DNA of 47,767 nucleotides, from assembly GCA_024546615.1 (NCBI GenBank), contig GCA_024546615.1_5040.1, one strand, 5' to 3'. A model generated the notes under the pieces. That model was not told where the DNA came from and did not search any database. It saw nothing but the letters and a program-made list of their open reading frames with translations. Of the stretch, positions 5,390 through 44,655 are shown piece after piece (within the stretch, counting starts at the first letter, position 1; each line of letters begins with the position of its first letter). A program made the translations under genes and the position numbers. The DNA is from Escherichia coli (GTDB lineage: Bacteria; Pseudomonadota; Gammaproteobacteria; Enterobacterales; Enterobacteriaceae).

Positions 5390-5418
5390 ACTCTATACCA
5401 CACTGACGGAGTCGTCAA
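5390..5418 (-). promoter_or_regulatory. Sigma70-like promoter TTGACG-17-TAGAGT overlapping palindrome TGACGGAGTCGTCA
   Basis: -35 is rc of 5413-5418, -10 is rc of 5390-5395, spacer 17; drives minus-strand acidic gene operon. Confidence 0.55.
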
Positions 5419-5420
5419 GC

Positions 5421-6206
5421 ATGTCACGACAAACAGAGCTGAATTATTATCGCCAGTTGAAACAGGTTGCCCGGCTTGTTCGTGAGGATGTGGACGCCAA
5501 CATCGTACCACTGGTGAAACAGCTTGCGCCGGAGTACACCGCTGACGGCTGGAGCGATACTATCACCTCGGCAATTAACCAGTTGCTTACACGGTGGCTT
5601 GGTGCGTTTGCTCGTCGTCAGGCTGAAACCATTGCGTCACAGTTTGTACAGACTGCGGCAAAGGATAACGCCCGTACATTCGCTATCAATCTGTACGGCG
5701 GTGATACACAGTTGCAGGAATATCTCAGCGCCGCATCGTATCAGAACGCTAAACTTATTCAGTCTATCCCGGCTCAGTATCTGGAGCAGGTGCAGAACAT
5801 TGTCATGACCAACATGCGTAACGGTATGCGCCCCAGCTACATTGAGCAGGCACTTGTTAAGCAATTTGGTATCACGGAACGTCGCGCTAAACTTATCGCC
5901 CGGGACCAGACCAGTAAAATACAGGGCGACATGAACCGCATTCGTCAGACGAACAGCGGTATTGAGTATTTCAAATGGGTAACGTCACAGGATGAGCGTG
6001 TGCGTCACAGTCATGTTGAAGTTGCAAAGCGTGATGTGGGATTCGGTGAAGGTGTATTCCGCTGGGATGATTTACCGGTTGTCGATGGTGTACCAACATT
6101 TCCCGGTCAGCCAATAAATTGCCGCTGTGTGGCAAGACCAGTTACAGCGGCACAGGTGGAGCGTAACAAAAAGGCCGGTAAAACCGACCCAAATGTTAAG
6201 CGTTAA
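5421..6206 (+). CDS. Head morphogenesis protein, Mu F / SPP1 gp7-like
   Basis: C-terminal motif ERRAKLIARDQT...YFKWVTSQDERVRHSH...NCRC typical of Phage_Mu_F family. Confidence 0.8.
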   Translation: MSRQTELNYYRQLKQVARLVREDVDANIVPLVKQLAPEYTADGWSDTITSAINQLLTRWLGAFARRQAETIASQFVQTAAKDNARTFAINLYGGDTQLQEYLSAASYQNAKLIQSIPAQYLEQVQNIVMTNMRNGMRPSYIEQALVKQFGITERRAKLIARDQTSKIQGDMNRIRQTNSGIEYFKWVTSQDERVRHSHVEVAKRDVGFGEGVFRWDDLPVVDGVPTFPGQPINCRCVARPVTAAQVERNKKAGKTDPNVKR

Positions 6207-6355
6207 TCCGTTACTTTTACAGAAGCTGTGACAAGAATCGCAACGAAGAGAAACCATCCCCATCCTTCTTTACCATTGAAAGCCAACCAAGCAGAGCACA
6301 CTATTGCAAAAAGTGTCGGTAATTTTATCAACGCAACAATAATTATGTCTTTCAT
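6203..6355 (-). CDS. Small membrane protein (about 50 aa)
   Basis: MKDIIIVALIKLPTLFAIVCSAWLAF...; RBS GAGGTGGG; below track cutoff. Confidence 0.3.
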   Translation of the reverse strand: MKDIIIVALIKLPTLFAIVCSAWLAFNGKEGWGWFLFVAILVTASVKVTD

Positions 6356-6510
6356 TTCCCACCTCGCACAATGCGGCACATATCGTTATAGATGACCGGG
6401 TGTTTGCGACAACCGCATAGATTATTGTTGTGACAAGCTATCAAACTGATGTCTTTTCCGGCATACCTTTTAAACCACCAACGACGCCACAGAAACCACC
6501 TGAGTACAGT
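6356..6510 (-). CDS. Small Cys/Trp-rich protein (about 51 aa)
   Basis: RBS GGAAGGG then ATG on minus strand; MTVLRWFLWRRWWFKRY... Confidence 0.25.
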
Positions 6511-6616
6511 CATTTTCCCTTCCACGTTTCAATTAAACTTTCAATACCCAGGAACAGTAAGTAACCGAATACCAACGTTCCGAACCAGTGGTCGGCAATG
6601 AAGTTGAGTACGTCAA

Positions 6617-6805
6617 TCATTTCCCACGTCCTCTGAACACACGGTTTATCACTTCCCACAGTCCGGCAAATACAGCAACCGGACCAAATGCAACAATTGC
6701 CCACGCCTGCCACTTATATTCCAGTTCCATAGGCAGCGTGTTGATTGTTACTATAATTACCCACCCTGCAAGCAGAATAATCAGTACACCTTTAACAATA
6801 CCCAT
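6617..6805 (-). CDS. Small two-TM membrane protein with basic C-terminus (holin-like topology)
   Basis: 62 aa, two hydrophobic segments, C-terminal RVFRGRGK. Confidence 0.35.
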   Translation of the reverse strand: MGIVKGVLIILLAGWVIIVTINTLPMELEYKWQAWAIVAFGPVAVFAGLWEVINRVFRGRGK

Positions 6806-7002
6806 TAACCCAACACCTTATTAACAAGTTGATTCATCTCGACCCAGCGCTGAGATACTGACCCATCCTCTTTGGTTGCGGTGAATGTCACAATATCTTC
6901 GAGGGAGTTCATTTTGAAGTTTGTCACGGTGATGACGCCGTCCACATCGATAAATTTGTCATTGTTGCGGAGCATTACCGCCTTGATTGGTTTACAATTC
7001 AT
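6805..7002 (-). CDS. Hypothetical protein (65 aa)
   Basis: Tightly packed minus-strand ORF with overlapping stop/start. Confidence 0.4.
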   Translation of the reverse strand: MNCKPIKAVMLRNNDKFIDVDGVITVTNFKMNSLEDIVTFTATKEDGSVSQRWVEMNQLVNKVLG

Positions 7003-7190
7003 TTTCCATACGCCTCACGTAATGTAGCGTTAGCGAGCGCCCAATCTTCATGCTTGCGTGCAATCTGTTGTGCGGCCTTTAACAGTTCTTTATCGACAAT
7101 GCGCGCCTCTGATGCAGGGCGGTTGTAGCCTGGAAGTAATGTGTTATCCAATGGCAAGCTCCCATGCGGCTTTATTGTTGAGATATGCAC
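6999..7190 (-). CDS. Hypothetical protein (63 aa)
   Basis: Minus-strand ORF, ATGA-type overlap with neighbour. Confidence 0.4.
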   Translation of the reverse strand: MHISTIKPHGSLPLDNTLLPGYNRPASEARIVDKELLKAAQQIARKHEDWALANATLREAYGK

Positions 7191-7350
7191 ACGTGAGTCC
7201 AGATTTTTCCGTGATTATGAATATTCTACAACCAACATCGTCGATAATATGTCCGTATTTGTACTCCGATGATGTTGGTTTGAATTCGTAACACTTGCCA
7301 TTCGTTAAGTAATCACAATTAGTCGGTACGTTGTTTGTAAATACTTTCAT
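7144..7350 (-). CDS. Hypothetical protein (68 aa)
   Basis: Minus-strand ORF in small-gene block. Confidence 0.35.
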   Translation of the reverse strand: MKVFTNNVPTNCDYLTNGKCYEFKPTSSEYKYGHIIDDVGCRIFIITEKSGLTCAYLNNKAAWELAIG

Positions 7351-7468
7351 CTCTCAAACCCTCTCTGCTGTTGATAAACTGAGTATACGTCATCCCTGAC
7401 GAACCCGTCAACATAAATATTTAACCCAAATCACAACGCCGACACAAAGTAGGAGGTAGTCCATAGTG

Positions 7469-7847: not shown

Positions 7848-7974
7848 AATTACTCACCCTCATACAGCGGTTTCAGTTGATACCCGAACATGACAGCGTT
7901 GTTATGCGCCACACTGCCCGCGCGGACCAGATATGTCGTACCGCGGTTGGTTGTCACTTCGTATGCGTATGGTT

Positions 7975-8443: not shown

Positions 8444-9586
8444 ATGTGTTTAACGATTATCACTATGGCATACTCTGACGGACTCGTCAACATGCAAATC
8501 ACCGTAACACACAATGACCGTAAAAGTTTTGCACTGAACTCCCAACGTGTTTACACGGATGAGGGATTCCTGCGTGTGCCGGGTAAAGCCGCTCGTACCG
8601 GTATTCAGGAGTATCTTGCTTTGGAACTGGGACTAAAAGACCGCGCACCGAATGACATTATCCGTGTATACCGTCCCGCCGAAGAAGTGTTTAACGATGC
8701 GTCGCTTCAGAGCTATCTCGGCGCAGATGTCACGAATAACCATCCTCCCACATTTGTCAACGCTTCCACGTACCGTAATACCTCCGTTGGTGTTGTAACG
8801 AGTATCGGTCGTCAGGACGGCGATTTTGTCATTGTGGATATGGTCATTAAGGATAAAGACGCGATTAAGGCTGTCGAAACCGGTAAGTGTGAGTTGTCAG
8901 CCGGTTACACGGCGGTGTATGATGATACACCAGGGACAACGCCGGAAGGTGAACCGTATGACTTCCGACAGACCCAGATTAAAATTAACCACGTTGCAAT
9001 TGTTGACCGTGCTCGTGCGGGTGCAATGGCGCGTATCTTCGATAATATGGAGAAAAAACCCATGTATCAAATCACCACTGACACCGGGGTAAAAGTCGAT
9101 GTGGCGGATGCTGTGGTAGTAGACGCGTTCAAACGCTTAGAACAGCGTGTCAGTGACGCAGAAGCCGCCAAAGAAACCGTACAGGCTCAACTCGACGCAG
9201 CACTGGAACAGGTTGCCGACCTGACCACCAAATGCAGCGATGAAGCCCTGAAAGCACGCGTGGAAGCAATTGCACGTGTTACCACCTCAGCACGTAAAGT
9301 TGCTGGCGATGAATTCACCTGTGACAGCGTGGACCCGGTTGCAATCAAACGTGCCGCTCTTGCTGTTAAACGTCCGTCTGTTGACTGGGCTGACAAATCT
9401 GCCGCCTATGTTGAAGCCGCTTTCGATATGGCCGTGGAAGAACCAGTGAAACCTGTGGTAGACTCACAACTTGAGCAACTGGCTAAAGATGGTGCTAAAG
9501 ACATCAAACAGCCGGTAGCCGACGCAAAACCTGTACTGTCCCGCGCACAAGAAGCACTGCTGCGTCAGACTGGCAAACTTAAATAA
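8444..9586 (+). CDS. Putative prohead protease/scaffold (DUF2213-like N-domain plus coiled-coil C-domain)
   Basis: Position before decoration-like and capsid genes; Ala/Glu-rich helical C-terminal half; true start uncertain (ATG 8444, 8465 or 8492). Confidence 0.55.
   Translation: MCLTIITMAYSDGLVNMQITVTHNDRKSFALNSQRVYTDEGFLRVPGKAARTGIQEYLALELGLKDRAPNDIIRVYRPAEEVFNDASLQSYLGADVTNNHPPTFVNASTYRNTSVGVVTSIGRQDGDFVIVDMVIKDKDAIKAVETGKCELSAGYTAVYDDTPGTTPEGEPYDFRQTQIKINHVAIVDRARAGAMARIFDNMEKKPMYQITTDTGVKVDVADAVVVDAFKRLEQRVSDAEAAKETVQAQLDAALEQVADLTTKCSDEALKARVEAIARVTTSARKVAGDEFTCDSVDPVAIKRAALAVKRPSVDWADKSAAYVEAAFDMAVEEPVKPVVDSQLEQLAKDGAKDIKQPVADAKPVLSRAQEALLRQTGKLK
8462..8490 (-). promoter_or_regulatory. 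Sigma70-like promoter TTGACG-17-CATAGT overlapping palindrome TGACGGACTCGTCAA (8476-8490)
   Basis: Spacing read directly; faces minus-strand small-gene block. Confidence 0.5.
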
Positions 9587-15186: not shown

Positions 15187-15215
15187 AGTATATCAGTGGC
15201 TGACGCATTCGTCAA
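15187..15215 (-). promoter_or_regulatory. Sigma70-like promoter TTGACG-17-TATACT overlapping palindrome CTGACGCATTCGTCAA (15200-15215)
   Basis: Spacing read directly; at left boundary of repeat copy A. Confidence 0.55.
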
Positions 15216-15510
15216 TACCTCATTTACCCCGAAATACCCGAGGCATCGGGGTGGCGAATTTACTTTCACAATCATAGGTTTACGCGCATAACCGAAAACC
15301 ACGTACATTCTTCCCCTCTTCCCTCTTATAAACCCTATAATATATACATTATGTATTATACTACATTTATACTATATATTATATACTCTCTATTACTACT
15401 AATTACTATTTTATAAGGGTATAAGGGTAATAAGTAATAAGTAACAGAAAACTAAAGAGTTTTTTATACCCCGATGACATACCCCGAACGAGTTTCAACG
15501 GGGTATGTGG
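15211..15510. repeat. Repeat copy A (~300 bp, about 93% identical to 47502-47767 plus 1-35): hairpins, AT-rich TATA-rich core, TAAGGGTA/ATAAGTA short direct repeats
   Basis: Direct by-eye alignment of the two copies; hairpin CCCCGA-N13-TCGGGG near 15228-15252 and ATACCCCG-N12-CGGGGTAT at 15479-15506. Confidence 0.85.
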
Positions 15511-18836: not shown

Positions 18837-18865
18837 ACTATAGCTCATCTTGACGAGTCCGTCAA
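18837..18865 (-). promoter_or_regulatory. Sigma70-like promoter TTGACG-17-TATAGT overlapping palindrome TTGACGAGTCCGTCAA (18850-18865)
   Basis: Spacing read directly; drives secreted moron gene. Confidence 0.55.
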
Positions 18866-18925
18866 TAATTGATTGATGATTTCGCCAAGTGTACACTGTA
18901 ACGACTAACAACCGGAGAAATAACA

Positions 18926-22547: not shown

Positions 22548-23194
22548 GTTTAATTAACCTTCTGGTAAAGCGCGGCCCACAGCTTGGGTCGCTTCAGTTC
22601 GATGCCGTCCTGTCTGATGACCTTGATGCCAGCGTGGATATCGTGCAGTACCCCATTGAGACAGGTACGCCAATTGCAGACCACATTATCTATCAGCCTA
22701 TTCGTTACACGATGACAGGTGCGGTATCGAACAACCCGTTGAAAGTTAGTATCACCGATTTCACCGGGGTATTGACAAATCTCGTCGATGATAATCCGTT
22801 CATTGCAGCGGGTGCCGGTCTGTTCGCGGGGTGGTTAAGCGGCTCGAATGAAACTCGCTCCAGTACGACACTGAACACTTTGCTTGATTTCATGTACTCC
22901 GGGCAGGTATTCACAGTGGATACGGGTGAAATCACGCTGAATAATATGGTCATTCAGCGTATCGGGCGCTCTAAAGACCCGGAGAATGAGAACGGACTGA
23001 TATTTGTTGCTGAACTACAGCAGATTGTCACGCTTGACCGCGTGGCGAACGGTTCACAACCGGCACAATATCAGCTGAACAGTAACGACGTTTCCAGCAC
23101 ATCCATATCAGGACTGATTGAGCGTGGTTACATCAATGTGAAAACAGCTGCAACGAATGTTGCTGACCAGGTTACGACACTTTTGGATTTGTAA
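22544..23194 (+). CDS. Putative baseplate/tail assembly protein (216 aa)
   Basis: Stop/start overlap with upstream gene; position in baseplate module. Confidence 0.45.
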   Translation: MSLINLLVKRGPQLGSLQFDAVLSDDLDASVDIVQYPIETGTPIADHIIYQPIRYTMTGAVSNNPLKVSITDFTGVLTNLVDDNPFIAAGAGLFAGWLSGSNETRSSTTLNTLLDFMYSGQVFTVDTGEITLNNMVIQRIGRSKDPENENGLIFVAELQQIVTLDRVANGSQPAQYQLNSNDVSSTSISGLIERGYINVKTAATNVADQVTTLLDL

Positions 23195-23220
23195 AAAAAA
23201 ATCCCGCCACGGAGGGCGGG
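23193..23220 (-). terminator. Minus-strand intrinsic terminator (A9 tract then CCCGCC-ACGGAG-GGCGGG)
   Basis: On minus strand reads hairpin followed by U9; on plus strand the hairpin lacks a U tract. Confidence 0.5.
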
Positions 23221-23229
23221 TGAACGCTA

Positions 23230-23745: not shown

Positions 23746-23796
23746 TTGACGTGAGTGTCAATAGTATACTTGACATTATTTTCACAGGAGGGCGAC

Positions 23797-32346: not shown

Positions 32347-32375
32347 ACTCTAAACTACTTTGACGCACTCGTCAA
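32347..32375 (-). promoter_or_regulatory. Sigma70-like promoter TTGACG-17-TAGAGT overlapping palindrome TTGACGCACTCGTCAA (32360-32375), embedded in 3' end of upstream gene
   Basis: Spacing read directly. Confidence 0.5.
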
Positions 32376-32948
32376 CGGTAAAACTAACTTTTCTGCTTCC
32401 TGAATGTACCAGTCGTAATTCAGTGCTCCCCAGTCGAAGTCTTTAGCGTCGGCACACTCTGTCACCTTCCATCCTGCACACATACTTGTTTCGCGCACTG
32501 CATCGTGCTTACTGCGACTCTTCGTGTGGATACGCTCGTCCCACGGTGTACCAATGCTGTCGAGGTCGCCCGGTTGACCTGTAATCTCACGCATTACCGC
32601 ATTGTACACATCGTCCTTGACACCATTCTTACGCTTCCATGTACCTGGTGTACCAGTGGGCGGTAACAGCTTGACCAGTGACCCACCGTTACGCGAGATA
32701 AATACACGTGTGGTATTCTGCATCTCCTGTTCAGCGCCCCACTCAGGCCAACGCATCACCAGACGTGCCGAACGAGGTACTTTGGCGCGCAGCATGAAGT
32801 CGAACGGGTCACGGTGCTGCGTGATGAACGTGCGGATGTCAGTGTCAAACAGAAGTGCGGCTTCAGCGGCGCGGGCAACAATCATCGCCGATGGGTCTTG
32901 ATGCCACTGGTATTTGTACTCGTAACACCCTTTTCTTTTAATTTTCAC
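32355..32948 (-). CDS. Hypothetical protein (197 aa) sharing GTPWDERIH motif with 37785-38834
   Basis: Motif DSIGTPWDERIHTKS versus DSTGTPWDERIHSTS in the 349-aa protein. Confidence 0.45.
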   Translation of the reverse strand: MKIKRKGCYEYKYQWHQDPSAMIVARAAEAALLFDTDIRTFITQHRDPFDFMLRAKVPRSARLVMRWPEWGAEQEMQNTTRVFISRNGGSLVKLLPPTGTPGTWKRKNGVKDDVYNAVMREITGQPGDLDSIGTPWDERIHTKSRSKHDAVRETSMCAGWKVTECADAKDFDWGALNYDWYIQEAEKLVLPLTSASK

Positions 32949-33828
32949 GGGTTGCCTCCAGCATTTCTAAAATTCGATTGTCCCATTTCAACCATTCGGT
33001 ACAACCATCAAAACCAGATAGTCCAGCATTAACGAAAGAAGAATGAGTTAGTTTTTCGATAAATTCCATTTTTCCACCTATGCCAGATAAAACTCGGAGT
33101 AACTGAAAATCAAATGGCGTACTTCTTTTCAATTTCCTCAAGCGATATTTATAATTATTGCTGATACCGACCTTCATATATTCCCCACCTTTGGAAGCAA
33201 GTACATAAAGGGAAGCCATCTGGTTACGTTTAAATCCACTCTTAGAACAGTCTTGACATCCTTGTCCACCGGATACGTGATCTATAGCCAATTTTTCAAA
33301 ACTACCGTGAACAGGGCAAATTATCTTTATTTTATGATGATTACCTTTATATTGAGATTCCGAATAATCATACTTATCCCCATGTACTGCGCGGGCTTTC
33401 TCAATCCATTCTTCGGTGTTATAAAGAGGAAGTCGTCCTTTTCCAGGACCTCCTGCGCATTTCGCGCACCCGTGGCCTTTTAGATGATTGCCGGCTAATT
33501 GGAGGAATTCCCCATGCTCTCGACAAATGATTATTATTTCTGAATGTCGTTTTTTATACTTAACCTTCGAATAATCATACTTATCTCCATGTACTGCACG
33601 GGCTTTCTCAATCCATTCTTCAGTGCTGGATTTTTTTGTCCCACCACAAACTGGGCAGCCGGAACCAGAACAGTGAGACGTGGGTTCTTGTCGGAAATCT
33701 CCATGCAATCGACAAACAATGGTCACTTTATGTTTTGAAGTACGATACTCGACCTTCGAATAATCATACTTATCTCCGTGTACCGCACGGGCTTTCTCAA
33801 TCCATTCTTCTGTGTTCAATCTTCTCAT
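32938..33828 (-). CDS. Homing-endonuclease-like protein: three tandem zinc-ribbon modules plus C-terminal T5orf172 (GIY-YIG-like) domain
   Basis: Three repeats of EEWIEKARAVHGDKYDYS...; C-terminal YVLASKGGEYMKVGISNNYKYRLRKL...GCTEWLKW; contains three ~55-bp DNA direct repeats. Confidence 0.6.
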   Translation of the reverse strand: MRRLNTEEWIEKARAVHGDKYDYSKVEYRTSKHKVTIVCRLHGDFRQEPTSHCSGSGCPVCGGTKKSSTEEWIEKARAVHGDKYDYSKVKYKKRHSEIIIICREHGEFLQLAGNHLKGHGCAKCAGGPGKGRLPLYNTEEWIEKARAVHGDKYDYSESQYKGNHHKIKIICPVHGSFEKLAIDHVSGGQGCQDCSKSGFKRNQMASLYVLASKGGEYMKVGISNNYKYRLRKLKRSTPFDFQLLRVLSGIGGKMEFIEKLTHSSFVNAGLSGFDGCTEWLKWDNRILEMLEATREN

Positions 33829-35348
33829 TCTATTACCATTATGTAATTATTCACATCTCGCTGATAGAGAGATTTCACAATATCAGTCTCCAGATTCAAC
33901 ATTGTTGTTTTTTCCCAAGACTTACATATGGATTCCACCAAAATTTCATATTTGTTTTCATAAAAAATGACGATTCCGTCAGTATTAGTTTGCGGTACGA
34001 TTAATCCGGGTACACGAGTTACAAGTTGGTCTACCAACATTGCCAAACAGAGTTGACCTGTAATAGTAATACTCAGGAGACACTTATGGTCACAAAATGG
34101 GCTAAATTTACTCCCCATGTTCCCAAATGTACCATTAAGAGCAAGTTTCAATGCCGCATCAACTGTTTTATCTCCCGCTCGTTTTGCATCACGACGACGA
34201 ATGAACAGTTGTTCATATACGTCGCAAAAAGTTTCACTAAGGTGTTCCGGATAGTACCTATTCTTTATACTAATGGAAGGGTACATACTTGTACAGTCTT
34301 TGTTTTGTAAATTGTGTGTTTGGGTAGAATGCACAACGTAGTTCGGAATACTACTGTGAATACCTCCCAATCCGAACGAATATTCGACACCATCAACTGT
34401 GACGGTCATATCACTAAACACACCTTTTGTGGTCAGTAATTCGTCCTGTTGTTTCTTCGTGAGTACAACCCCACGAATGCGTTCCAGAATTTGATTGAAC
34501 TCCGGTCGTTCGAATTTGATATAAGGGGGTATGCAATCTGCAAGTGCAATACGTTCACGAATGGTTACTCCGGAGCAATCTACCCCGGCCTTTTCCAGCT
34601 CGTGAACGAATATATCTTTGCCGATTTTAGTGTCGGCGTGGTTCATGAAGTTACGTCCGTATTGCTTTGTCAGTTCCTCACGGAAATGGATTTTGTCGAG
34701 TGAACGTACAAAGAATTTCAGCGTCTCTCGCACGTCGTGTTTGTTATATACGATGAGGATATCTTTCTGCGCATCGTTCAGCACCATTCCGACCGGGAAT
34801 GGCAGGTCTTTTACGTTGGGGGACTGCATGCCCACTTCCAACGCCTTCAGACTGGTGCGCCGGGCTTTATTATCAAAGTGATGAATTTTGTACAGGTCAA
34901 TCTGCTCGAAAATCTGGTCGCGGTCCCATACAATTTCGGGCCACTGACCTTCGGGTTTAATTTGTGATTGTGCTTTTGTGTAAATCTGTTCCAGTGTACA
35001 GCCTGGTGTATTGACCACGTAGTGCAACACCGGATAGTCGAATGCCAGGTTATTAAATCCAATCCCACGGGCCTTACTACATCCCAGGTTGAACACAAAT
35101 TCGATTAATTGCGGTTGCTCGTTTTTGCGGTCACTAATCTCGAAGATTAACTCCATACCCGTCGCAGCGTGAATAAATGAGGCAGTGAAGATATTCGGAT
35201 ACGTCTCGATGTCCCATCCCCAGTCCCGCGGGTCCAGTGGTGCAACGCTGGAGAACGCCGAATCAGCCCCACAGTGAGGGCAATTGTGGAGGTCAGCGGG
35301 ATAATTTTTACCGCAAGTTGCATCCTCGCATTTTGATAAATAGTGCAT
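33825..35348 (-). CDS. Compact family-B DNA polymerase with 3'-5' exonuclease motifs and N-terminal zinc finger
   Basis: Exo I WDIETY, Exo II FNNLAFDYPVL, Exo III YNKHDVRE; motif A DCTSMYPSI, motif B KLALNGTFG, motif C TNTDG; N-terminal C-x4-C-x11-C-x2-C. Confidence 0.7.
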   Translation of the reverse strand: MHYLSKCEDATCGKNYPADLHNCPHCGADSAFSSVAPLDPRDWGWDIETYPNIFTASFIHAATGMELIFEISDRKNEQPQLIEFVFNLGCSKARGIGFNNLAFDYPVLHYVVNTPGCTLEQIYTKAQSQIKPEGQWPEIVWDRDQIFEQIDLYKIHHFDNKARRTSLKALEVGMQSPNVKDLPFPVGMVLNDAQKDILIVYNKHDVRETLKFFVRSLDKIHFREELTKQYGRNFMNHADTKIGKDIFVHELEKAGVDCSGVTIRERIALADCIPPYIKFERPEFNQILERIRGVVLTKKQQDELLTTKGVFSDMTVTVDGVEYSFGLGGIHSSIPNYVVHSTQTHNLQNKDCTSMYPSISIKNRYYPEHLSETFCDVYEQLFIRRRDAKRAGDKTVDAALKLALNGTFGNMGSKFSPFCDHKCLLSITITGQLCLAMLVDQLVTRVPGLIVPQTNTDGIVIFYENKYEILVESICKSWEKTTMLNLETDIVKSLYQRDVNNYIMVIE

Positions 35349-36442: not shown

Positions 36443-36471
36443 ATACTACGTTAGTTTGACGAGTGCGTCAA
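36443..36471 (-). promoter_or_regulatory. Sigma70-like promoter TTGACG-17-TAGTAT overlapping palindrome TTGACGAGTGCGTCAA (36456-36471); 5'-UTR hairpin GGGAGAC/GTCTCCC at 36414-36432
   Basis: Spacing and hairpin read directly. Confidence 0.5.
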
Positions 36472-36474
36472 CAG

Positions 36475-37602
36475 TTATTTTCGGGAAAATACATTTTTAA
36501 TTGCACGTTCATCGACCTGTTCCAGTTTGACACCCGTGACAGGTGTTTCAGCGTACTGCTCCACTACGGACGGATCGATACCCTTTTTGACACACTGTGC
36601 GGGTGTGTCCAGTTCCTGCGGCTTACGCACATCAACACCCTGCAACTCCGCCATGAATATAACCTGGTCCACCGGAACATCTTTCTTCCAGCGCTTGCGA
36701 CCATACGTGGTTTTAGCGCTGTAGAATGTCACGTGTTGCCCCTGTTTAATCTCGTGTAGGGCTTGTTCTTCCAGACCGCTGAGACGCATTTTAATCATCT
36801 CCTGTGCACGCTGCAGAAGTCGCAGTTCGACACCCAACGCATGACCGGACAAGTTGTGCGTCTGCAGCGATGTCACGTAATCGATACCGGCGTAACTCTG
36901 TTGCTTCAGTGTGTCACAGTGCGCACGTGCGCTACAGTCGAGACAGTGTGGTCCGGGTGTACACAGTGGGGCGGCGTCCAGTACGCGGGGCATCGTCTCG
37001 TTCACCTGCTGTCGGTATGCGCACAGTTCATCGTATGTGAGCGCCCATTTGCGCACTGTACCCTCACTGGTGAATCCGCGAGGCTGCACGATGACCAGTT
37101 CGATAATGTCCGGCGGTGTCTGGAATTGCTCGCAAATGCTGAATGCTTCAATTAACAGCTGCCAGTTTTCAAACGGGTCAACAATGCGGTGACCGAATTT
37201 AGCGTCCCAGACGCGTAACACCTTCGCTTCCGGTACATATACCCACGCATCGGGGATACAGTACCAGTCGCTGTAACCTGGTACAGGACACACTTCCTCA
37301 ACGTGAAGGTCATGTAGTCGCTCATGACTGTTACAGTAACCCCATACCTCGTTAAAATACTCGCGGGCTGCGTCAAACAGTTCGTCCGTGATAACAATGC
37401 CATCCTTTGACAGACTACCTACCAGGTCACTGAATGGCTCATTTTTGAATAACTTCTGAGCCACTTCGTGTGCTGCCCGGCCCTCAAGCCGGGATTGTGA
37501 CGGTTCGACGTCCAGTGGTGGATAAGCCTGCTGCGCCCGGAATGACCCATTACAGGTCATCCATTGTCCGGCATCAGATACTTTGGGTAGTTGTGTGGTC
37601 AT
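36475..37602 (-). CDS. Cas4/RecB-family PD-(D/E)XK nuclease (DUF2800-like) with Cys4 cluster
   Basis: N-terminal Cys (MTCNG) plus C-terminal C-x2-C-x5-C (CLDCSARAHC); VWDAKFG resembling motif III. Confidence 0.6.
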   Translation of the reverse strand: MTTQLPKVSDAGQWMTCNGSFRAQQAYPPLDVEPSQSRLEGRAAHEVAQKLFKNEPFSDLVGSLSKDGIVITDELFDAAREYFNEVWGYCNSHERLHDLHVEEVCPVPGYSDWYCIPDAWVYVPEAKVLRVWDAKFGHRIVDPFENWQLLIEAFSICEQFQTPPDIIELVIVQPRGFTSEGTVRKWALTYDELCAYRQQVNETMPRVLDAAPLCTPGPHCLDCSARAHCDTLKQQSYAGIDYVTSLQTHNLSGHALGVELRLLQRAQEMIKMRLSGLEEQALHEIKQGQHVTFYSAKTTYGRKRWKKDVPVDQVIFMAELQGVDVRKPQELDTPAQCVKKGIDPSVVEQYAETPVTGVKLEQVDERAIKNVFSRK

Positions 37603-37784: not shown

Positions 37785-38834
37785 TCACTCCCCCAAATGC
37801 GCTTTAACACGTGCCACGAACGGACCGATTTTATCCGGGTGGGCGTTCAGTTCCTGTACCGACGACATGCCATCCTGCGCCAGTAGCATATTCACCGTTA
37901 CCACATCAATCTTGCCGTGACGCTCGGTCAGGAAGGTCATGAGGCGCGGGAAGTCCCATATGGTGTGGTCTACCATACGCTCTAACGCTGGAGAGACAGT
38001 GCCCGACGGTGGGAAAGGAACGCCGTCATCGAATTGCGGCACAGGTGGTGCAACAACTACCGGCGGCGGTACAGGCAGTGGCGGAATACCCGCAACGGTT
38101 TGCTCGGTTACCACACCTGCGTCAGTGTGGAAGTCGTCACCCGGAGGTGTTACAGCTGGTTCGACGTCGTCGCTTTCCCCAACACCAACACCACCGTTGC
38201 CGCCAGAGCCGGGTCGGCGGTCTGTATCCCAGGATTCATCGCCCGGCGGTGTTACGGGTGGTTCTAGCATCTTGTTAGAAGCTTCGATGAGTTCGTCGAC
38301 TTCTTCTCGTGTGGGTTCACCAATTTCCACGGGTTCCAGGGCTTTAACTTCTTCATCAGTCATTACTGGTGTTTGAGTATGCGACTCAGCTTTCACCGAC
38401 TCAACAAATGCTGCCCACTCTTCTTCATCCATATCCTTCGGCTTACGACGCAAACGCCACGTACCGTCCACATTGAGCGCTTTGCTGGTAGAGTGGATAC
38501 GCTCATCCCACGGTGTACCGGTTGAGTCGGTAGTGGGTGGGTCGATATCCGGTTTAACTGGTACGCACAATTCAACCATTTCGCGAGTTACTTCAATACT
38601 TCTCCCGTCACGGGGAGCCAGTGACTCAACCTGTTGAGCGGTCGTGTCGATTTCCGGCTCATCCATCATTTGTGGCGCGGGTTGTTGCAGTGCTTCAGTG
38701 CCGATAACCAGTGGGGTTACGGTCACATCGACCGGGTAACCATCTTTTTTGCTGGCAATTTCGATAAGCGCTTTACCGAATTGAAACAATGCGATGGTAT
38801 CATCGTTCGGGATGGTCAGTGTGATGTTACTCAT
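37785..38834 (-). CDS. Acidic, proline-rich hypothetical protein (349 aa)
   Basis: First gene of leftward replication block; low-complexity Pro/Glu/Asp-rich regions; shares GTPWDERIH motif with 32355-32948. Confidence 0.5.
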   Translation of the reverse strand: MSNITLTIPNDDTIALFQFGKALIEIASKKDGYPVDVTVTPLVIGTEALQQPAPQMMDEPEIDTTAQQVESLAPRDGRSIEVTREMVELCVPVKPDIDPPTTDSTGTPWDERIHSTSKALNVDGTWRLRRKPKDMDEEEWAAFVESVKAESHTQTPVMTDEEVKALEPVEIGEPTREEVDELIEASNKMLEPPVTPPGDESWDTDRRPGSGGNGGVGVGESDDVEPAVTPPGDDFHTDAGVVTEQTVAGIPPLPVPPPVVVAPPVPQFDDGVPFPPSGTVSPALERMVDHTIWDFPRLMTFLTERHGKIDVVTVNMLLAQDGMSSVQELNAHPDKIGPFVARVKAHLGE

Positions 38835-38868: not shown

Positions 38869-38897
38869 ACTCTATATCACCATGACGCAGCCGTCAA
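38869..38897 (-). promoter_or_regulatory. Sigma70-like promoter TTGACG-17-TAGAGT overlapping palindrome ATGACGCAGCCGTCAA (38882-38897)
   Basis: Spacing read directly. Confidence 0.5.
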
Positions 38898-38911: not shown

Positions 38912-38954
38912 TTGACACGGGGTGGGTGGTGCGACATAATGACGCCATCGTCAA
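38912..38954 (+). promoter_or_regulatory. Sigma70-like promoter TTGACA-17-CATAAT with palindrome ATGACGCCATCGTCAA (38939-38954) overlapping -10/+1
   Basis: Near-consensus hexamers; palindrome in operator-like position. Confidence 0.55.
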
Positions 38955-39298: not shown

Positions 39299-40957
39299 GT
39301 GGGAGATGTGATGCAACTGCGCCCATATCAGTCCAGTCTTGTGACTGGGATCAATAATTATTGGTCAACAAACCCACGGGGTAAAGTGCTGGCGGTGCTT
39401 GCGACAGGTGGTGGGAAGACTGTTATTTTCTCATCTATTATCGCTGCCGAACAAGGTGCGACATGTGCCATTGCACACCGCCAGGAACTCGTCAGTCAGA
39501 TGAGTCTCACGCTTGCCAAAAACGGTATCTATCACCGCATTGTCGGTTCGAATAAAACCGTGAAAAACTGTGTGAAGATTCACATGGATGAATTAGGTAA
39601 GACATTTTACGACGCTGGAAGTAAACACGCGGTCGCCAGTGTGGACACAATCATCCGGCGTGGCGAGCAACTTGCCAACTGGTTACCGTCTGTTCGTCTG
39701 TGGGTTATCGATGAGGCACACCATGTACTTAAAGATAACAAATGGGGCAAAGCCGTGCAGATGTTCCCCAATGCTCGCGGGCTGGGGGTTACAGCTACAC
39801 CGTGTCGTGCGGATGGTAACGGTCTGGGAAGTCATGCAGATGGCGTGTTTGATACTATGTTCGAAGGCGTGGCAATGGGGGAACTCATACGAGATGGGTA
39901 TCTGACCGATTACAAAATTTTCGCACCTCCCAGTAGTTTCTCACGTGAACAAATTAAGGTGAGCGAGTCCACGGGGGATTTCAACCTGAACCAGATGAGG
40001 GAGGTCGTTAACGGCTCATCACTGGTGACACACGATGAGAAAACCATCACCGGTGATGTTGTTGCTCAATATCTGAAAATTGCCCGTGGTAAATCCGGCG
40101 TGACATTCACTGTCGACGTGGCGAGCGCTGAGGAAATCGCGGAACAGTATAATAAAGCAGGTGTCCCGGCAGCGGCAATAAGCTGTAACACTCCTGACCT
40201 TGAACGATTCGCAGCGGTGCGAAAATTTAAAAATAAAGAGATATTACAATTAGTTAACTCCGAGATTCTGACCGAGGGCTTCGATTGTCCCGGCATTGAG
40301 GTTGTTTCATTCGGTCGTCCAACCGAATCGTACAGTATGTATAGTCAAATGTTTGGCCGCGCCCTCAGACCATTACCAGGTAAAACCCACGCAATTATTA
40401 TTGACCATGTGGGTAACGTCATGCGCCACGGTTTACCGGATGCACCGCGTGAGTGGAGTCTTGACCGTCGGGAGCGTCGCACGGGTAAAAGTGAACCATC
40501 TACGGTGCGTGTGTGTACAGCTTGCGCGGCAGTGTATGAGCGGTTCCGTGACGCGTGTCCTGACTGTGGCGAACCTGTGCCAAAACCGGCGCAACGTAGT
40601 GGTCCCGAATTCGTAGACGGTGACCTGTACGAGCTTGACCCGGACGTACTGGCGCAGATGCGTAACGAGGTTGTGGGAGCACGTGAGACACCCGAGGCAA
40701 TGCGTGACAGACTGACTGGTCGCTACATGCCACAAGCTGGTGTCATAAGTGAGGTACGAAAACAAATAAAACGTCTTGACGCGCTCGTCAAACTGGACCA
40801 TACTCTTGCTCAGTGGGCCGGTTATCGCCGTGCGGAAGGTCTGAGCGACAGCGAAATATTTCGTAAATTTTACCTGACGTATGGTGTGTCATGGCTGGAG
40901 GCGCAGGCGCTCAAAGCGGCTGATGCGGATAAATTACGGGAGAGGATTGGATTGTGA
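39299..40957 (+). CDS. SF2 DEAD/DEAH-box helicase
   Basis: Walker A LATGGGKT, motif II VIDEAHH; RBS GGGAGA. Confidence 0.75.
   Translation: MGDVMQLRPYQSSLVTGINNYWSTNPRGKVLAVLATGGGKTVIFSSIIAAEQGATCAIAHRQELVSQMSLTLAKNGIYHRIVGSNKTVKNCVKIHMDELGKTFYDAGSKHAVASVDTIIRRGEQLANWLPSVRLWVIDEAHHVLKDNKWGKAVQMFPNARGLGVTATPCRADGNGLGSHADGVFDTMFEGVAMGELIRDGYLTDYKIFAPPSSFSREQIKVSESTGDFNLNQMREVVNGSSLVTHDEKTITGDVVAQYLKIARGKSGVTFTVDVASAEEIAEQYNKAGVPAAAISCNTPDLERFAAVRKFKNKEILQLVNSEILTEGFDCPGIEVVSFGRPTESYSMYSQMFGRALRPLPGKTHAIIIDHVGNVMRHGLPDAPREWSLDRRERRTGKSEPSTVRVCTACAAVYERFRDACPDCGEPVPKPAQRSGPEFVDGDLYELDPDVLAQMRNEVVGARETPEAMRDRLTGRYMPQAGVISEVRKQIKRLDALVKLDHTLAQWAGYRRAEGLSDSEIFRKFYLTYGVSWLEAQALKAADADKLRERIGL
40776..40804 (+). 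promoter_or_regulatory. Internal promoter TTGACG-17-CATACT with palindrome TTGACGCGCTCGTCAA inside helicase 3' coding region
   Basis: Spacing read directly. Confidence 0.4.
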
Positions 40958-41631: not shown

Positions 41632-41660
41632 TTGACCACTCCGTCAACCTGTGCCATACT
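41632..41660 (+). promoter_or_regulatory. Sigma70-like promoter TTGACC-17-CATACT overlapping palindrome TTGACCACTCCGTCAA (41632-41647)
   Basis: Spacing read directly. Confidence 0.5.
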
Positions 41661-41689
41661 GCAACAAATCACCTAATGGAACCGAATTT

Positions 41690-41968
41690 ATGAGCAAAGA
41701 ATACATTTTAGAAGTAGCTTACACAATGGCGCAGCGCGACGGCTTTGGCACTCTTACCCGCGACGGCGTTGCGGCTGAGGCTGGCGTGGCGATGGGTTCA
41801 GTTAACCATCACTGGGTCAGGATGTCCGCACTTCGTGAAGCAGTGATGCAACGGGCAGTGGAAGAAGAAAACCTCGAATTGATTGGACAGGGAATGGCGC
41901 TGGGTGATAGCGTTGCCAAATCCGCACCACTGGAGCTACGCACCCGCGCACTGACCACCCTGCTTTAA
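41690..41968 (+). CDS. Small HTH protein, TetR-like N-terminal fold (candidate transcriptional regulator)
   Basis: TLTRDGVAAEAGVAMGSVNHHW resembles TetR-family HTH; track ORF trimmed to MSKEY start. Confidence 0.45.
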   Translation: MSKEYILEVAYTMAQRDGFGTLTRDGVAAEAGVAMGSVNHHWVRMSALREAVMQRAVEEENLELIGQGMALGDSVAKSAPLELRTRALTTLL

Positions 41969-41990
41969 TAACTAAAACAGAGAGACAGAG

Positions 41991-44348
41991 ATGACACATA
42001 TGAATCCCCCTGTGCAGGGGGCTGATTCCCTGCACTTTATCGTCTGCAAAACAGTACCTTCACAGAAGAAGCCGGGACGTACGGAGAAGATGCCATGTAA
42101 CGCTGCCGGTGATGTGGTCAGTCTGCACGTTGCGGACCGGATGTCTCACGCTCAGGCAGTTGCGGCGGCTTCCGCACTGGGTGAGTCATATCGTCCCGCG
42201 GTTATTCTTACGGGTGACGGACGTTTCTGCGTGGATATCGACGGCGCACTGCAGGACGACAACACCTGGTCGCCGCTTGCGCTGGAGTTATGCACCACTT
42301 TTGCCGGTTGTTACGTGGAAGTGAGCAACAGCGGTAAAGGCTTGCACATTTTTGGTTACAGCCCGTCCATCCCCGAACATGCCTGTAAAAATATTCCACT
42401 ACACATTGAACTGTACACCTCTGACCGTTTTATCTGCCTGGGGAGCAACGCACGAGGTGACATGATGTTCAACGCATCTGCGCCGCTCAACGCCACGGTT
42501 GCACGTTATTTCCCGCAGACCGAACAAGTTGCGGCGGTGGAGTGGACAACGACTCACGCTGAAGGTTCGTGTCCGATTGAGGATGATGTGAAACTCATCG
42601 AAAAAGCCTGTTCCAGTAAAGGCGGTGTCGCGGCTGTTTTCGGTGGTAAAGCAACATTCAAAGACCTGTGGACGCGCAACGTTGAGGTACTGAGTGATGC
42701 GTATCCGGATGAGGACCGTGAATATGACGGGTCAAGCGCTGATGCAGCATTAGCCCAGCATCTGGCGTTCTGGTGCGGCGGTAACTGTCAACGTATTGAG
42801 CGTCTGATGCGTCTCAGTGCCCTTGTCAGACCAAAATGGGACAGCCATAAGAGTTACCTTCAACGCACCATCCTGGGCGCTTGCGCACGTCAGACGACTT
42901 ATTACAGCGTCGGTGCACCAATTGAACTGGTAACTCCCGCGCAGGTTGTCGAGACGGGTGCGCCGGTTATCCGCAGTGGGTATCAGTTCATTGGAGGCTC
43001 ACAGCTTGTTGACCACTTCAAAGGCTGCGTGTATGTGGCAGACAGTCACCGCATTCTCACACCTAACGGTCAGATGCTGAAGTCCGAGCAGTTTAACGCG
43101 ATGTACGGTGGTTATGTGTTTGCACTGGATGACGGTAACGAAAAGACCACCAAAAAGGCTTTTGAAGCGTTCACCGAGAATCAGTGCATCATGTTCCCGA
43201 AGGTTGATCGCTCGACATTTCGTCCGGATTTGCCACAGGGTGCAATCATTGAGGAGGATGGTCTGCGTCACGTCAATACGTACATACCGGTGACGGTGGC
43301 GAGCGCCCCCGGCGATGTGACACCTTTCCTCACTCATCTGGCCAAACTGTTACCCGTCGAGCGCGACCGTGACATTCTGTTGTCCTACATGGCAGCGTGT
43401 GTACAGTACAAGGGTGTAAAATTTAAATGGGCACCATTGTTACAGGGTGTTGAAGGTAACGGTAAAACACTGTTCACACTGTGCGTAATGGAAGCGGTCG
43501 GGTCACGTTACAGCCACATGCCGCCAGCGCAGGAAATTGGTGAGAAGTTCAACGCCTGGTTGTTCGATAAAATATTTATCGGCGTGGAGGATATTTATGT
43601 CCCGGAGCAAAAACTCGAACTGATTGAGACGCTCAAGCCGATGATTACCGGCGAGTACCTCGCCAAGCGTGCGATGCAACAGGACCAGGTAATGCACCGC
43701 CTGTGTGCTAACTTCATGTTTAACAGTAACCACAAGAACGCCGTGCGCAAGACCGCTAATGACCGCCGGTTCGCCATTTTCTACACCGCGCAGCAGGAGC
43801 ATATGGACATTGTGCGCGATGGTATGGGTGGCGACTACTTCCCCAACCTGTATGACTGGCTCAAACGTGGCGGTGGATTTGCAGCCGTAACGCATTATCT
43901 GGAGAACTACGCCATTCCCACACAACTTAACCCGGCGACACATTGTCAGCGTGCCCCGGAAACAAGTAGTACCCACGAGGCTGTGACAGCATCACTCGGC
44001 AGTGTCGAGCAGGAAATTATGGAAGCAATCGACGAGGGTCGCACGGGCTTCGCGGGGGGCTGGGTGAGTAGTAAAGCACTGGATAATCTGTTACGCCAGA
44101 TGCGCGCTGACCGCGCTGTGCCGGTGGGTAAACGTCGCGACATGATGCGCCAACTGGGTTACGACTGGCACCCGGCGCTTAAAGACGGGCGTGTGAATAA
44201 CGTAATAATGATTGATGGTGGTAAACCGCGTCTCTACATCAAGATTGGACATATTCATGCTAACCTCACAAATGCGGCGGACGTGGCGCGCCATTACGCA
44301 GCAGCACAGGGTGATACAAGTGCGTTAGCCTTTGCAGAAACTAAATAA
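41991..44348 (+). CDS. Primase-helicase (P4 alpha/D5-like, SF3 helicase C-domain)
   Basis: 785 aa; Walker A GVEGNGKT, Walker B FIGVEDIYV; N-terminal primase-like domain; RBS AGAGAGACAGAG. Confidence 0.7.
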   Translation: MTHMNPPVQGADSLHFIVCKTVPSQKKPGRTEKMPCNAAGDVVSLHVADRMSHAQAVAAASALGESYRPAVILTGDGRFCVDIDGALQDDNTWSPLALELCTTFAGCYVEVSNSGKGLHIFGYSPSIPEHACKNIPLHIELYTSDRFICLGSNARGDMMFNASAPLNATVARYFPQTEQVAAVEWTTTHAEGSCPIEDDVKLIEKACSSKGGVAAVFGGKATFKDLWTRNVEVLSDAYPDEDREYDGSSADAALAQHLAFWCGGNCQRIERLMRLSALVRPKWDSHKSYLQRTILGACARQTTYYSVGAPIELVTPAQVVETGAPVIRSGYQFIGGSQLVDHFKGCVYVADSHRILTPNGQMLKSEQFNAMYGGYVFALDDGNEKTTKKAFEAFTENQCIMFPKVDRSTFRPDLPQGAIIEEDGLRHVNTYIPVTVASAPGDVTPFLTHLAKLLPVERDRDILLSYMAACVQYKGVKFKWAPLLQGVEGNGKTLFTLCVMEAVGSRYSHMPPAQEIGEKFNAWLFDKIFIGVEDIYVPEQKLELIETLKPMITGEYLAKRAMQQDQVMHRLCANFMFNSNHKNAVRKTANDRRFAIFYTAQQEHMDIVRDGMGGDYFPNLYDWLKRGGGFAAVTHYLENYAIPTQLNPATHCQRAPETSSTHEAVTASLGSVEQEIMEAIDEGRTGFAGGWVSSKALDNLLRQMRADRAVPVGKRRDMMRQLGYDWHPALKDGRVNNVIMIDGGKPRLYIKIGHIHANLTNAADVARHYAAAQGDTSALAFAETK

Positions 44349-44370
44349 GCCCTTCGGGGCTTTTTTTTTT
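44347..44370 (+). terminator. Intrinsic terminator GCCC-TTCG-GGGC plus T10
   Basis: Read directly. Confidence 0.75.
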
Positions 44371-44380
44371 GCAATTAGTA

Positions 44381-44409
44381 TTGACGGACTCGTCAATAGG
44401 GCGTATATT
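44381..44409 (+). promoter_or_regulatory. Near-consensus sigma70 promoter TTGACG-17-TATATT with palindrome TTGACGGACTCGTCAA (44381-44396)
   Basis: Read directly; preceded by conserved GCAATTAGT. Confidence 0.65.
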
Positions 44410-44458
44410 TAATCACATGAAAGGCGGAACTGTTCCACCCCACGGGGAGAATAAGAAA

Positions 44459-44584
44459 ATGAATTATCAACCACTCAAAAATAAATGTCGTGCTGCGGTC
44501 ATTCGAAAAGCATGGCGTGACGCACCAGAAGGAAAAGCCAAAGTGGCAATGCTTACTTGGGCGGACAAGTTGTGGAATAGTTGA
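44459..44584 (+). CDS. Small basic protein (41 aa)
   Basis: RBS GGGGAGA 8 nt before ATG; flanked by promoter and terminator. Confidence 0.35.
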   Translation: MNYQPLKNKCRAAVIRKAWRDAPEGKAKVAMLTWADKLWNS

Positions 44585-44590
44585 CAATGA

Positions 44591-44616
44591 CAGCCCCTGA
44601 ATGGGGCTTTTTTTTT
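44591..44616 (+). terminator. Intrinsic terminator AGCCCC-TGAAT-GGGGCT plus T9
   Basis: Read directly. Confidence 0.75.
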
Positions 44617-44626
44617 GCAATTAGTG

Positions 44627-44655
44627 TTGACGAGTCCGTCAAGGTAGGTTATCTT
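44627..44655 (+). promoter_or_regulatory. Sigma70-like promoter TTGACG-17-TATCTT with palindrome TTGACGAGTCCGTCAA (44627-44642)
   Basis: Read directly; same GCAATTAGT upstream context as 44381. Confidence 0.6.

Follow-up and report, generated by a model that had tools for sequence, protein, structure and literature searches.

Why should one short palindrome recur along a phage genome with both of its halves kept, when a single half would serve a promoter? The question is raised by the Escherichia coli contig GCA_024546615.1_5040.1, here called the window, a stretch of 47,767 nucleotides (nt) which is a complete, circularly permuted genome (47.8 kb) of a JD001-like Klebsiella myovirus of the genus Jedunavirus. 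The element in question is the 16-base-pair (bp) sequence TTGACG-N4-CGTCAA, or its 14-bp core TGACG-N4-CGTCA. The answer put forward here as moderately probable is that the palindrome forms a composite promoter-operator of early-type genes, bound by mini-TetR, a TetR-type repressor of 92 amino acids (aa) encoded by the same phage, which would damp early transcription.

A recurring palindrome in early-type promoters

Comparison with shuffled sequence excludes chance as the source of the palindromes. The exact 14-bp core is found 13 times in the window where 0.08 copies are expected, a number attained in none of 100 shuffles; the exact 16-mer is found six times (18850, 32360, 36456, 40776, 44381 and 44627) where 0.02 are expected, and 16 sites lie within two mismatches of the 16-mer against 3.0 expected. 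The original prediction had described 13 full palindromes. The recurring palindrome is real and all the listed sites were found, but only six of them are perfect 16-mers and seven have one mismatch, which is the outer T (replaced by C or A) at 5403, 8475, 15200, 38882 and 38939, and an inner position at 23746 and 41632, the two sites which are gained when the core is allowed one mismatch. One span had to be corrected from 8476-8490 to 8475-8490, and two exact cores had been overlooked, at 7396-7411 and 33967-33982. Further matches with one or two mismatches, at 22410 and 18873, are likely to be due to chance. The latter (18873-18888, TTGATGATTTCGCCAA) is a degenerate palindrome 7 bp to the right of the 18850 site; a rightward promoter-like site, TTGATT-17-TACACT, precedes the tail chaperone gene (18926) here and has this palindrome in its spacer. 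The counterpart of the palindrome in the phages ZCEC13 and Geezett is nearer to consensus (TTGATGATTTCGTCA).

Oriented by their best -10 hexamer, 12-13 of the sites are sigma70-type promoters of the form TTGACG-N4-CGTCA-N8-TAnnnT, as had been proposed, and the spacer claimed to be exactly 17 bp is of that length at most of them and of 18 bp at 7396. Twelve have a -10 with at least four of six matches to TATAAT, A at position 2 and T at position 6. A promoter scan independently lists the minus-strand positions 5418, 7411, 8490, 15215, 18865, 32375, 36471 and 38897 and the plus-strand positions 40776, 41632, 44381 and 44627, all with TTGACG or TTGACC, a spacer of 17 (once 18) bp and a TAnnnT-type -10. 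The association is seen also in a test which is blind to the palindrome: the pattern TTGAC-N19-A-N3-T has 17 matches, and 12 of them have CGTCA at offset 10-14, against about 0.02 by chance.

The distribution of these promoters follows the layout of the genome, whose identity to the phages SBP, 1611E-K2-1 and JD001 and to Escherichia phage ZCEC13 is about 90-92%, and which is collinear with ZCEC13 in gene order. According to the ZCEC13 annotation the rightward structural blocks comprise terminase and portal, head, neck and tail, and baseplate; they are interrupted by short clusters of small leftward genes, and the last third of the genome is a divergent replication region with DNA polymerase, exonuclease and a gene resembling single-stranded DNA-binding protein (SSB) in the leftward arm, and helicase, nuclease, the 'TetR' gene and primase in the rightward arm. 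Nine promoter sites are leftward (5403, 7396, 8475, 15200, 18850, 23746, 32360, 36456 and 38882) and head the small leftward clusters and the leftward replication operon, while the four rightward ones (40776, 41632, 44381 and 44627) all belong to the right arm. Because no palindrome promoter is found at the rightward structural blocks or the lysis cluster, the motif marks early-type promoters (those of leftward small-gene clusters and replication genes) and not all promoters. The palindrome described as genome-wide is dispersed, but its promoters are restricted to this class. Placements within coding ends were correctly noted: the 32360 site overlaps the 3' end of the DNA polymerase reading frame and the 40776 site lies within the helicase gene. 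The same is true of the half-site at 47501-47506, which is the -35 of a minus-strand TTGACC-18-TATAGT promoter and has no second half.

A simple explanation of the symmetry, offered together with the original prediction, would be that the palindrome is a -35 box common to two divergent promoters, since TTGACG is present on both strands at the six perfect sites. However, no acceptable -10 stands at 16-18 bp in the opposite direction at any site, with poor scores throughout, and in the non-promoter half the outer T has often given way to C, A or G, by which a second -35 would be weakened. On the other flank there is typically a terminator (44347, 44592) or a co-directional gene which ends there, or else a start codon follows within 1-3 nt. 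Because the opposite direction has no usable -10 and the flanks are one-directional, this explanation was rejected and is given almost no probability. The partner half is kept even at the one-directional sites 44381 and 44627, as had been pointed out, and terminator-like hairpins precede both of them (44347-44362 and 44592-44608).

Both half-sites under selection and a site without a -35 role

Orthologous sites were located by flank similarity alone in ZCEC13, Geezett, three metagenomic relatives and Pantoea phage AAM22, which gave 38 site pairs. Across these pairs positions 0-5 (TTGACG) and 10-14 (CGTCA) are 100% identical but for a single half-site substitution, which belongs to the site without a promoter, 33967. 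Identity of 100% is seen also for the T, A and T of the -10, while identity of the N4 is 55-74%, the lowest within about 40 nt on either side. Both halves of the palindrome are therefore under selection, and because both are invariant while the N4 is hypervariable, the pattern is the signature of two half-sites which would be read by a symmetric protein across an uncontacted spacer. Recent duplication as the source of the palindromes does not fit with invariant halves and a hypervariable N4.

The site at 38939-38954 is of particular weight. The rightward promoter at 38912 is the strongest consensus promoter in its region and drives the genes from 38975 onward (a zinc-ribbon protein, then the helicase). 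The palindrome starts at the final base of its -10 and spans about -8 to +8 of this separate TTGACA-17-CATAAT promoter, as had in substance been described, so it cannot serve as a -35 box. It is identical in ZCEC13, Geezett, L009 and L012. In AAM22 a single palindrome is the leftward -35 and also follows on TAATCT, which by visual inspection could be the -10 of a rightward promoter, and in Edwardsiella phage PEi21 the rightward promoter has a palindrome of its own as its -35. The element shifts relative to the promoter hexamers and yet keeps its sequence.

The placement bears on the proposal that no protein operator exists and that the palindrome is either an extended promoter element, read by the polymerase or by a phage factor bound to it, or a structure, namely a cruciform or an RNA hairpin in late read-through transcripts. 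An element read by the polymerase is not expected outside any spacer, where the 38939 site lies, nor elsewhere in the promoter, where the palindrome of Pseudoalteromonas phage PY6 (discussed below) is found; sigma70 polymerase is not known to read specific bases at -25 to -21. As for structure, RNA hairpins at the palindromes do fold (-4.6 to -8.6 kcal/mol), and several plus-strand late genes start 1-3 nt past a palindrome with a GGAG- or GGAC-like N4 as a possible ribosome-binding site in the loop, which would suit a function in RNA processing or in translation starts of late genes. The energies are weak, however, with one hairpin no better than shuffles, most sites are not beside a plus-strand start codon, and the stem is identical everywhere and never changed by compensation, which a structure would not need. 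A hairpin function in RNA or DNA was on these grounds judged unlikely, and the proposal as a whole receives a very small probability.

The late-gene junctions are worth describing in their own right. Rightward late genes begin 1-3 nt past the palindrome in the window (5403-5423 and 8475-8494), in PEi21 (4735 and 19894) and in Vibrio cholerae phage 138 (21407 and 30085), which leaves no room there for promoters of their own, so late transcripts must come from upstream, antisense to the early cluster. The N4 at these junctions begins with G (GGAG, GGAC, GGGC or GGTG, about 10 nt before the ATG) and may act in ribosome binding from within the loop of the hairpin which the palindrome can form.

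Mini-TetR as the candidate binding protein

The motif is not confined to Jedunavirus. Ten exact cores are present in AAM22, 8-9 TGAC-N6-GTCA sites in the V. cholerae phages 138 and CP-T1 (nine in CP-T1), and at least five copies in PEi21, and they occupy matching positions: heads of leftward clusters, ends of the helicase and exonuclease genes, the TetR promoter and the terminator-promoter cassettes which follow the primase gene. Shewanella phage SppYZU01 has only the replication module in common and a different structural module, and all five of its strong promoters read TTGACG/T-N4-(C/G)G(T/G)CA. It follows that the motif travels with the replication module, and it is old. A tblastn search found six complete genes common to the five motif-bearing lineages (the window, AAM22, 138, PEi21 and SppYZU01), encoding the SSB-like protein, exonuclease, helicase, nuclease, primase and a 92-aa protein with a TetR_N domain only. 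This last protein, mini-TetR, is the only regulator among them and, judged by sequence, the best candidate for the binder of the palindrome.

Mini-TetR matches the Pfam family TetR_N (PF00440) at residues 6-52 with 27.7 bits over a cut-off of 24, and thus has the N-terminal, three-helix helix-turn-helix (HTH) domain of the TetR type. A phmmer search pairs residues 3-67 with the N-terminal DNA-binding domains of solved TetR proteins, which are about 200 aa long (E = 4e-5). What TetR proteins use to bind ligands and to dimerise, a C-terminal helical domain of about 130-150 aa, is absent, as the protein ends at residue 92; its place is taken by some 35 conserved residues, for which helices are predicted and the confidence of the model is higher than elsewhere in the protein. 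Homologues are found in 95 phage records, and a second profile search led mostly to close relatives found before. A library-wide profile search yielded 1,187 clusters at 50% identity (E <= 1e-10), the best 150 of which are all short, most of about 90-115 aa. Among 149 of the closest clusters, 49, mostly of about 165 aa, have an extra N-terminal HTH (profile positions 1-43) before the full 92-aa module. These two-HTH chains, among clusters P0129-P0277, include the SppYZU01 protein (38065-38565). Near and remote homologues alike fall into these two size classes. No NCBIfam model describes mini-TetR, the matches covering residues 2-59 only and falling far below their cut-offs.

In every lineage examined the promoter of the mini-TetR gene itself has a site with one mismatch (TTGACC or TTGACA, or CGGCA in the other half). 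A conserved imperfect site is what would be expected of an autoregulated repressor whose own promoter is shut last.

The operator has a precedent in RutR, a TetR-family regulator of E. coli, a single dimer of which occupies the 16-bp palindrome TTGACCAnnTGGTCAA with A4 and T13 as critical bases (PMC2475637, PMC2952853). The phage palindrome TTGACGnnnnCGTCAA has the same 16-bp TTGAC-N6-GTCAA frame with 10 of 12 specified bases in common: the outer TTGAC/GTCAA, A4/T13 and the spacing are identical, whereas positions 6/11 are G/C and not C/G and positions 7/10 are free, so that RutR's preferred inner CCA..TGG stands against G-N4-C in the phage. RutR comprises 212 aa. Mini-TetR differs from it in having 92 aa and no ligand domain. 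RutR also responds to uracil and has its targets mostly inside genes (PMC2475637), whereas the phage sites are built into -35 boxes.

Such likeness raises the possibility that the sites are bound by a host factor, either RutR or another conserved host regulator, which would tie the early promoters to host physiology. The two boxes differ at two symmetric positions only, RutR tolerates 9-11 of 14 matches in vivo (PMC2475637), and the mini-TetR promoter has the RutR-type half TTGACC. Set against these points, positions 6/11 are invariantly G/C in Klebsiella and Pantoea phages and not the C/G preferred by RutR, and phages of Vibrio, Edwardsiella and Shewanella, hosts which may or may not have RutR, keep the motif too. 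Furthermore the phages encode their own TetR-type HTH protein, whose recognition helix is different from that of RutR, and RutR is not among the solved structures that match mini-TetR by sequence. A host factor is accordingly thought improbable.

A more serious competitor, although still rather unlikely, is another phage protein of unrecognised fold, either a small early open reading frame (ORF) or the 58-aa zinc-ribbon protein at 38975, with some different task left to mini-TetR. Most small early proteins have no Pfam match, which leaves space for a novel DNA-binding fold, and the zinc-ribbon protein is encoded by the first gene downstream of the rightward promoter that the 38939 site would control. 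However, such a protein must be common to the window, AAM22, 138, PEi21 and SppYZU01, and five of the six common genes encode replication enzymes; a homologue of the zinc-ribbon ORF was not detectable in AAM22, 138, PEi21 or SppYZU01 at E <= 1e-4. Pfam detected no other HTH domain in the about 30 early proteins scanned.

Preference for mini-TetR is strengthened by the lineages from which the motif is missing. In PY6, with a mini-TetR homologue of 32% identity and no TGACG motif, a different palindrome, TAGCGC-N4-GCGCTA, is placed in the spacer of five TTGACn-17-TACACT promoters (7108, 8015, 12383, 19993 and 28189), starting 3 bp past the -35 and overlapping the first two bases of the -10. Vibrio phage CKB-S1 has GCTAGATTAGCGC over the -10 of a divergent promoter (36479-36520) and of the TetR promoter (40804-40840); apart from these two -10 regions no clean palindrome family was definable in CKB-S1 and R9Y2. 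The PY6 and CKB-S1 elements may be lineage-specific operators of diverged mini-TetR proteins. On the protein side, G36 at the start of the mini-TetR recognition helix aligns with RutR T52 and QacR G37, both of which contact DNA (PMC2475637, PMC2952853), and it is kept in the five motif-bearing lineages, while S, Q or P stands at this position in the three lineages which lack the motif. In so small a sample this co-variation of recognition helix and operator is only suggestive; searches with a three-sequence alignment and with the PY6 protein brought no further related loci. Taken together, the invariance of the half-sites, the operator-only site at 38939, the co-travelling TetR_N gene and the PY6 palindrome support the proposal of a regulon of a dimeric protein with its operator fused to the -35, in which binding itself is inferred.

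The mechanism which can be envisaged is as follows. The upstream half TTGACG would serve host sigma70 polymerase as the -35, with a TAnnnT -10 at a distance of 17 bp, and these near-consensus early promoters would fire right after infection. Mini-TetR would be supplied both by the rightward early operon and by transcription from its own promoter and, on accumulating, presumably as a dimer, would occupy the core, which spans about -34 to -21 and would be its symmetric site, where it would have to clash with or exclude sigma region 4. At 38939 it would lie across the start site and block it. All 12-13 early promoters, many of which are antisense to structural genes, would be damped or shut off together, and mini-TetR, with its imperfect site, would be repressed last.

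Several points weigh against this account. Canonical TetR proteins dimerise through their C-terminal domain, which mini-TetR does not have, so that a dimer is an assumption; as to mini-TetR, its AlphaFold2 monomer model is of moderate quality (predicted local distance difference test 75, predicted template modelling score 0.53), and Foldseek comparison of the model with the PDB gave no significant structural match. The PEi21 and 138 homologues, at 33-35% identity, are as diverged as that of PY6 (32%) and yet the motif is kept, so the operator cannot be predicted from identity alone, and only a few lineages underlie the co-variation. Late transcription could be hindered by a repressor bound where its transcripts must cross, and an accumulating early repressor leaves the imperfect site upstream of terS (38-53) unexplained. 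The searchable literature on Jedunavirus and its relatives yields no binding, footprint or transcript data.

Genomic context, known systems and meaning

The sites and the associated features are collected in Table 1.

Table 1. Palindromic sites, related promoters and the mini-TetR gene in the window (strand "." = no orientation assigned)
Coordinates	Strand	Feature	Sequence and spacing	Context
38..53	+	One-mismatch core	ATGACGGGACAGTCAT	Fills spacer of GTGGCA-18-TGtTAAAAT promoter-like site upstream of terS
5403..5418	-	Candidate promoter-operator	CTGACGGAGTCGTCAA; TTGACG-ACTC-CGTCA, 17-bp spacer, -10 TAGAGT (5390-5395)	Heads leftward cluster 5352 to 3380; plus-strand head-protein ATG (5421) 3 nt beyond
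7396..7411	-	Candidate promoter-operator	TTGACG-GGTT-CGTCA, 18-bp spacer, -10 TATACT	Heads 7350 to about 6203
8475..8490	-	Candidate promoter-operator	TTGACG-AGTC-CGTCA, 17-bp spacer, -10 CATAGT	Heads leftward cluster 8340 to 7469 (DUF3310, DUF551 proteins); plus-strand ATG 2 nt beyond
15200..15215	-	Candidate promoter-operator	TTGACG-AATG-CGTCA, 17-bp spacer, -10 TATACT	Heads 15155 to 14228, including homologue of ZCEC13 dUTPase
18850..18865	-	Candidate promoter-operator, perfect 16-mer	17-bp spacer, -10 TATAGT	Heads 18806 to 18558
23746..23761	-	Variant site	TTGACA-CTCA-CGTCAA, weak -10 (AATTAT/TAATTA)	Intergenic region 23194-23797
32360..32375	-	Candidate promoter-operator, perfect 16-mer	17-bp spacer, -10 TAGAGT	Heads 32314 to 32099
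33967..33982	.	Orphan exact core	ATGACGATTCCGTCAG; no -10	In polymerase N-terminal fragment
36456..36471	-	Candidate promoter-operator, perfect 16-mer	-10 TAGTAT	Heads 36388 to 35576 (SSB-like gene)
38882..38897	-	Candidate promoter-operator of leftward replication/recombination operon	TTGACG-GCTG-CGTCA, 17-bp spacer, -10 TAGAGT	Heads 38834 to 36475
38912..38940	+	Rightward promoter	TTGACA-17-CATAAT, 11/12 consensus	No palindrome in spacer
38939..38954	+	Candidate operator-only site	ATGACGCCATCGTCAA	About -8 to +8 of 38912 promoter
40776..40791	+	Candidate promoter-operator, perfect 16-mer	17-bp spacer, -10 CATACT	In helicase gene; conserved in AAM22
41632..41647	+	Imperfect site, mini-TetR gene promoter	TTGACC-ACTC-CGTCAA, 17-bp spacer, -10 CATACT	
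41690..41968	+	mini-TetR gene, candidate palindrome binder		92 aa, TetR_N only
44381..44396	+	Candidate promoter-operator, perfect 16-mer	17-bp spacer, -10 TATATT	Directly 3' of terminator 44347-44362 and GCAATTAGTA
44627..44642	+	Candidate promoter-operator, perfect 16-mer	17-bp spacer, -10 TATCTT	Directly 3' of terminator 44592-44608 and GCAATTAGTG; heads 44690 onward
47477..47506	-	Control promoter	TTGACC-18-TATAGT; -35 half only, no CGTCA partner	For 47451 to 46873

The variant site at 23746 and the one-mismatch core at 38-53 are both conserved in ZCEC13 and Geezett. The latter lies close to one copy of a direct repeat of about 300 bp (about 92% identity; 15212-15510, and 47504-47767 running on into 1-35), and the position which matches it after the other copy has a different sequence. 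The repeat contains a GC hairpin (CCCCGA...TCGGGG), very AT-rich tatact/tattat repeats and the hairpin GACATACCCCGAACGAGTTTYAACGGGGTATGT, and its copies differ mainly in the stretch immediately 5' of the hairpin. Each copy is found immediately to the right of a leftward early promoter and is followed on its 3' side by an extended -10 promoter-like site and then a late block (neck/tail at 15560, terS at 83); the repeat possibly serves as an origin, or as a control region of the late genes present in duplicate.

The orphan core at 33967 is immediately upstream of an insertion in the DNA polymerase gene (32355-35348, minus strand), which is split into reading frames of 507 and 197 aa by a 296-aa ORF (32938-33828) with MUG113/T5orf172 domains, typical of homing endonucleases. 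Inside this ORF a 79-nt repeat is present in three copies (33349-33823). The polymerase of ZCEC13 is unsplit (704 aa), and the metagenomic relative L012 carries the same insertion.

Sites 44381 and 44627 belong to a cassette of terminator, GCAATTAGTR and palindrome promoter, present in two copies (44347-44412 and 44592-44658; 56 nt, 75% identical) and found also 3' of the primase gene in AAM22, PEi21 and phage 138.

That one phage repressor should act on many dispersed operators is an arrangement of a known general kind. The stoperators of cluster A mycobacteriophages (L5 gp71, D29) are likewise many copies of one repressor site across a phage genome. They are asymmetric 13-bp sites, mostly in transcribed regions and in one orientation; the immunity repressor which binds them comes from a temperate phage and is not a TetR protein, and they act partly by stopping elongation. 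The sites in the window, in contrast, are two-fold symmetric and stand at the -35/spacer or the +1 of promoters, in a phage which looks virulent. The stoperator also resembles a -35 hexamer, and some copies coincide with promoters (PMC12266134, citing Bhawsinghka 2018). Measured against asymmetric 13-bp sites, oriented with transcription and mostly within transcription units, the sites in the window are not of the stoperator type. In phiC31 (conserved inverted repeats) and P1 (C1 operators) one repressor governs many early promoters through a scattered repeated operator; these are lysogeny repressors of other protein families, with operators separate from the -35 hexamer. An early phage protein which turns down early promoters during infection is known from lambda Cro and from phi29 p4/p6 (PMC3100819). 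They act at one or few control regions, whereas here about 13 promoters each have their own copy. The terminator-promoter cassettes resemble the promoter-early stem-loop (PeSL) cassettes of T4. PeSL cassettes are repeated modules of terminator and early promoter which flank small variable gene clusters, and they were described as a recombination or shuffling module and not as a symmetric operator. New in the present case are a symmetric operator of which one half is the -35 box, a predicted regulator of 92 aa without a ligand domain, and the apparently virulent phage.

Description of the motif or of the function of the protein was not found in the searchable literature (Jedunavirus/JD001 and AAM22 promoters, the motif, phage TetR operators). 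The tetR genes of phiPLPE, CP-T1 and 138 were noted by Comeau et al. in 2012 and suggested to be co-opted host stress regulators; the repeats which they report are tandem repeats, unrelated to the palindrome (PMC3391216).

As regards lifestyle, no integrase is annotated in ZCEC13 or Geezett, and neither PLSDB plasmids nor 5,426 complete E. coli genomes contain a match to the replication arm of the window, Klebsiella genomes being outside this search. Contigs which encode the 92-aa TetR_N-only protein are all of 75 kb or less. Because of the missing genome and plasmid matches and the small contigs the phage appears virulent, and the prophage or plasmid state which would accompany a lysogeny repressor was not seen. 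Nevertheless it is conceivable, though unlikely, that mini-TetR and its dispersed operators constitute a non-canonical immunity, in which every early promoter would be silenced and the genome would persist in a quiescent carrier or (pseudo)lysogenic state with no need of integrase, transposase or partition genes. Vibrio phage CP-T1 has been described as temperate, yet lacks the genes of the three known lysogeny mechanisms (PMC3391216); it was isolated, according to the literature, from an induced lysogen, and has its mini-TetR and sites in common with the lytic phage 138. If true, the immunity reading would explain the temperate behaviour of CP-T1 and would define a large family of TetR_N-only phage regulators (1,187 clusters), apparently uncharacterised so far.

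If, on the other hand, the palindrome is the promoter-operator of an early repressor, as preferred here, a complete wiring diagram of early transcription would be obtained, with one 92-aa repressor, one 14-bp site and about 13 promoters, which would cover Jedunavirus, a source of candidates for Klebsiella therapy, as well as its Pantoea, Vibrio, Edwardsiella and Shewanella relatives. A function would be assigned to the TetR_N-only family, whose members have until now been annotated as 'TetR regulator' or guessed to be co-opted stress regulators (PMC3391216). It can be said that an operator with one half as the -35 box would be a compact design, and mini-TetR with its site might provide a small orthogonal repressor-promoter pair.

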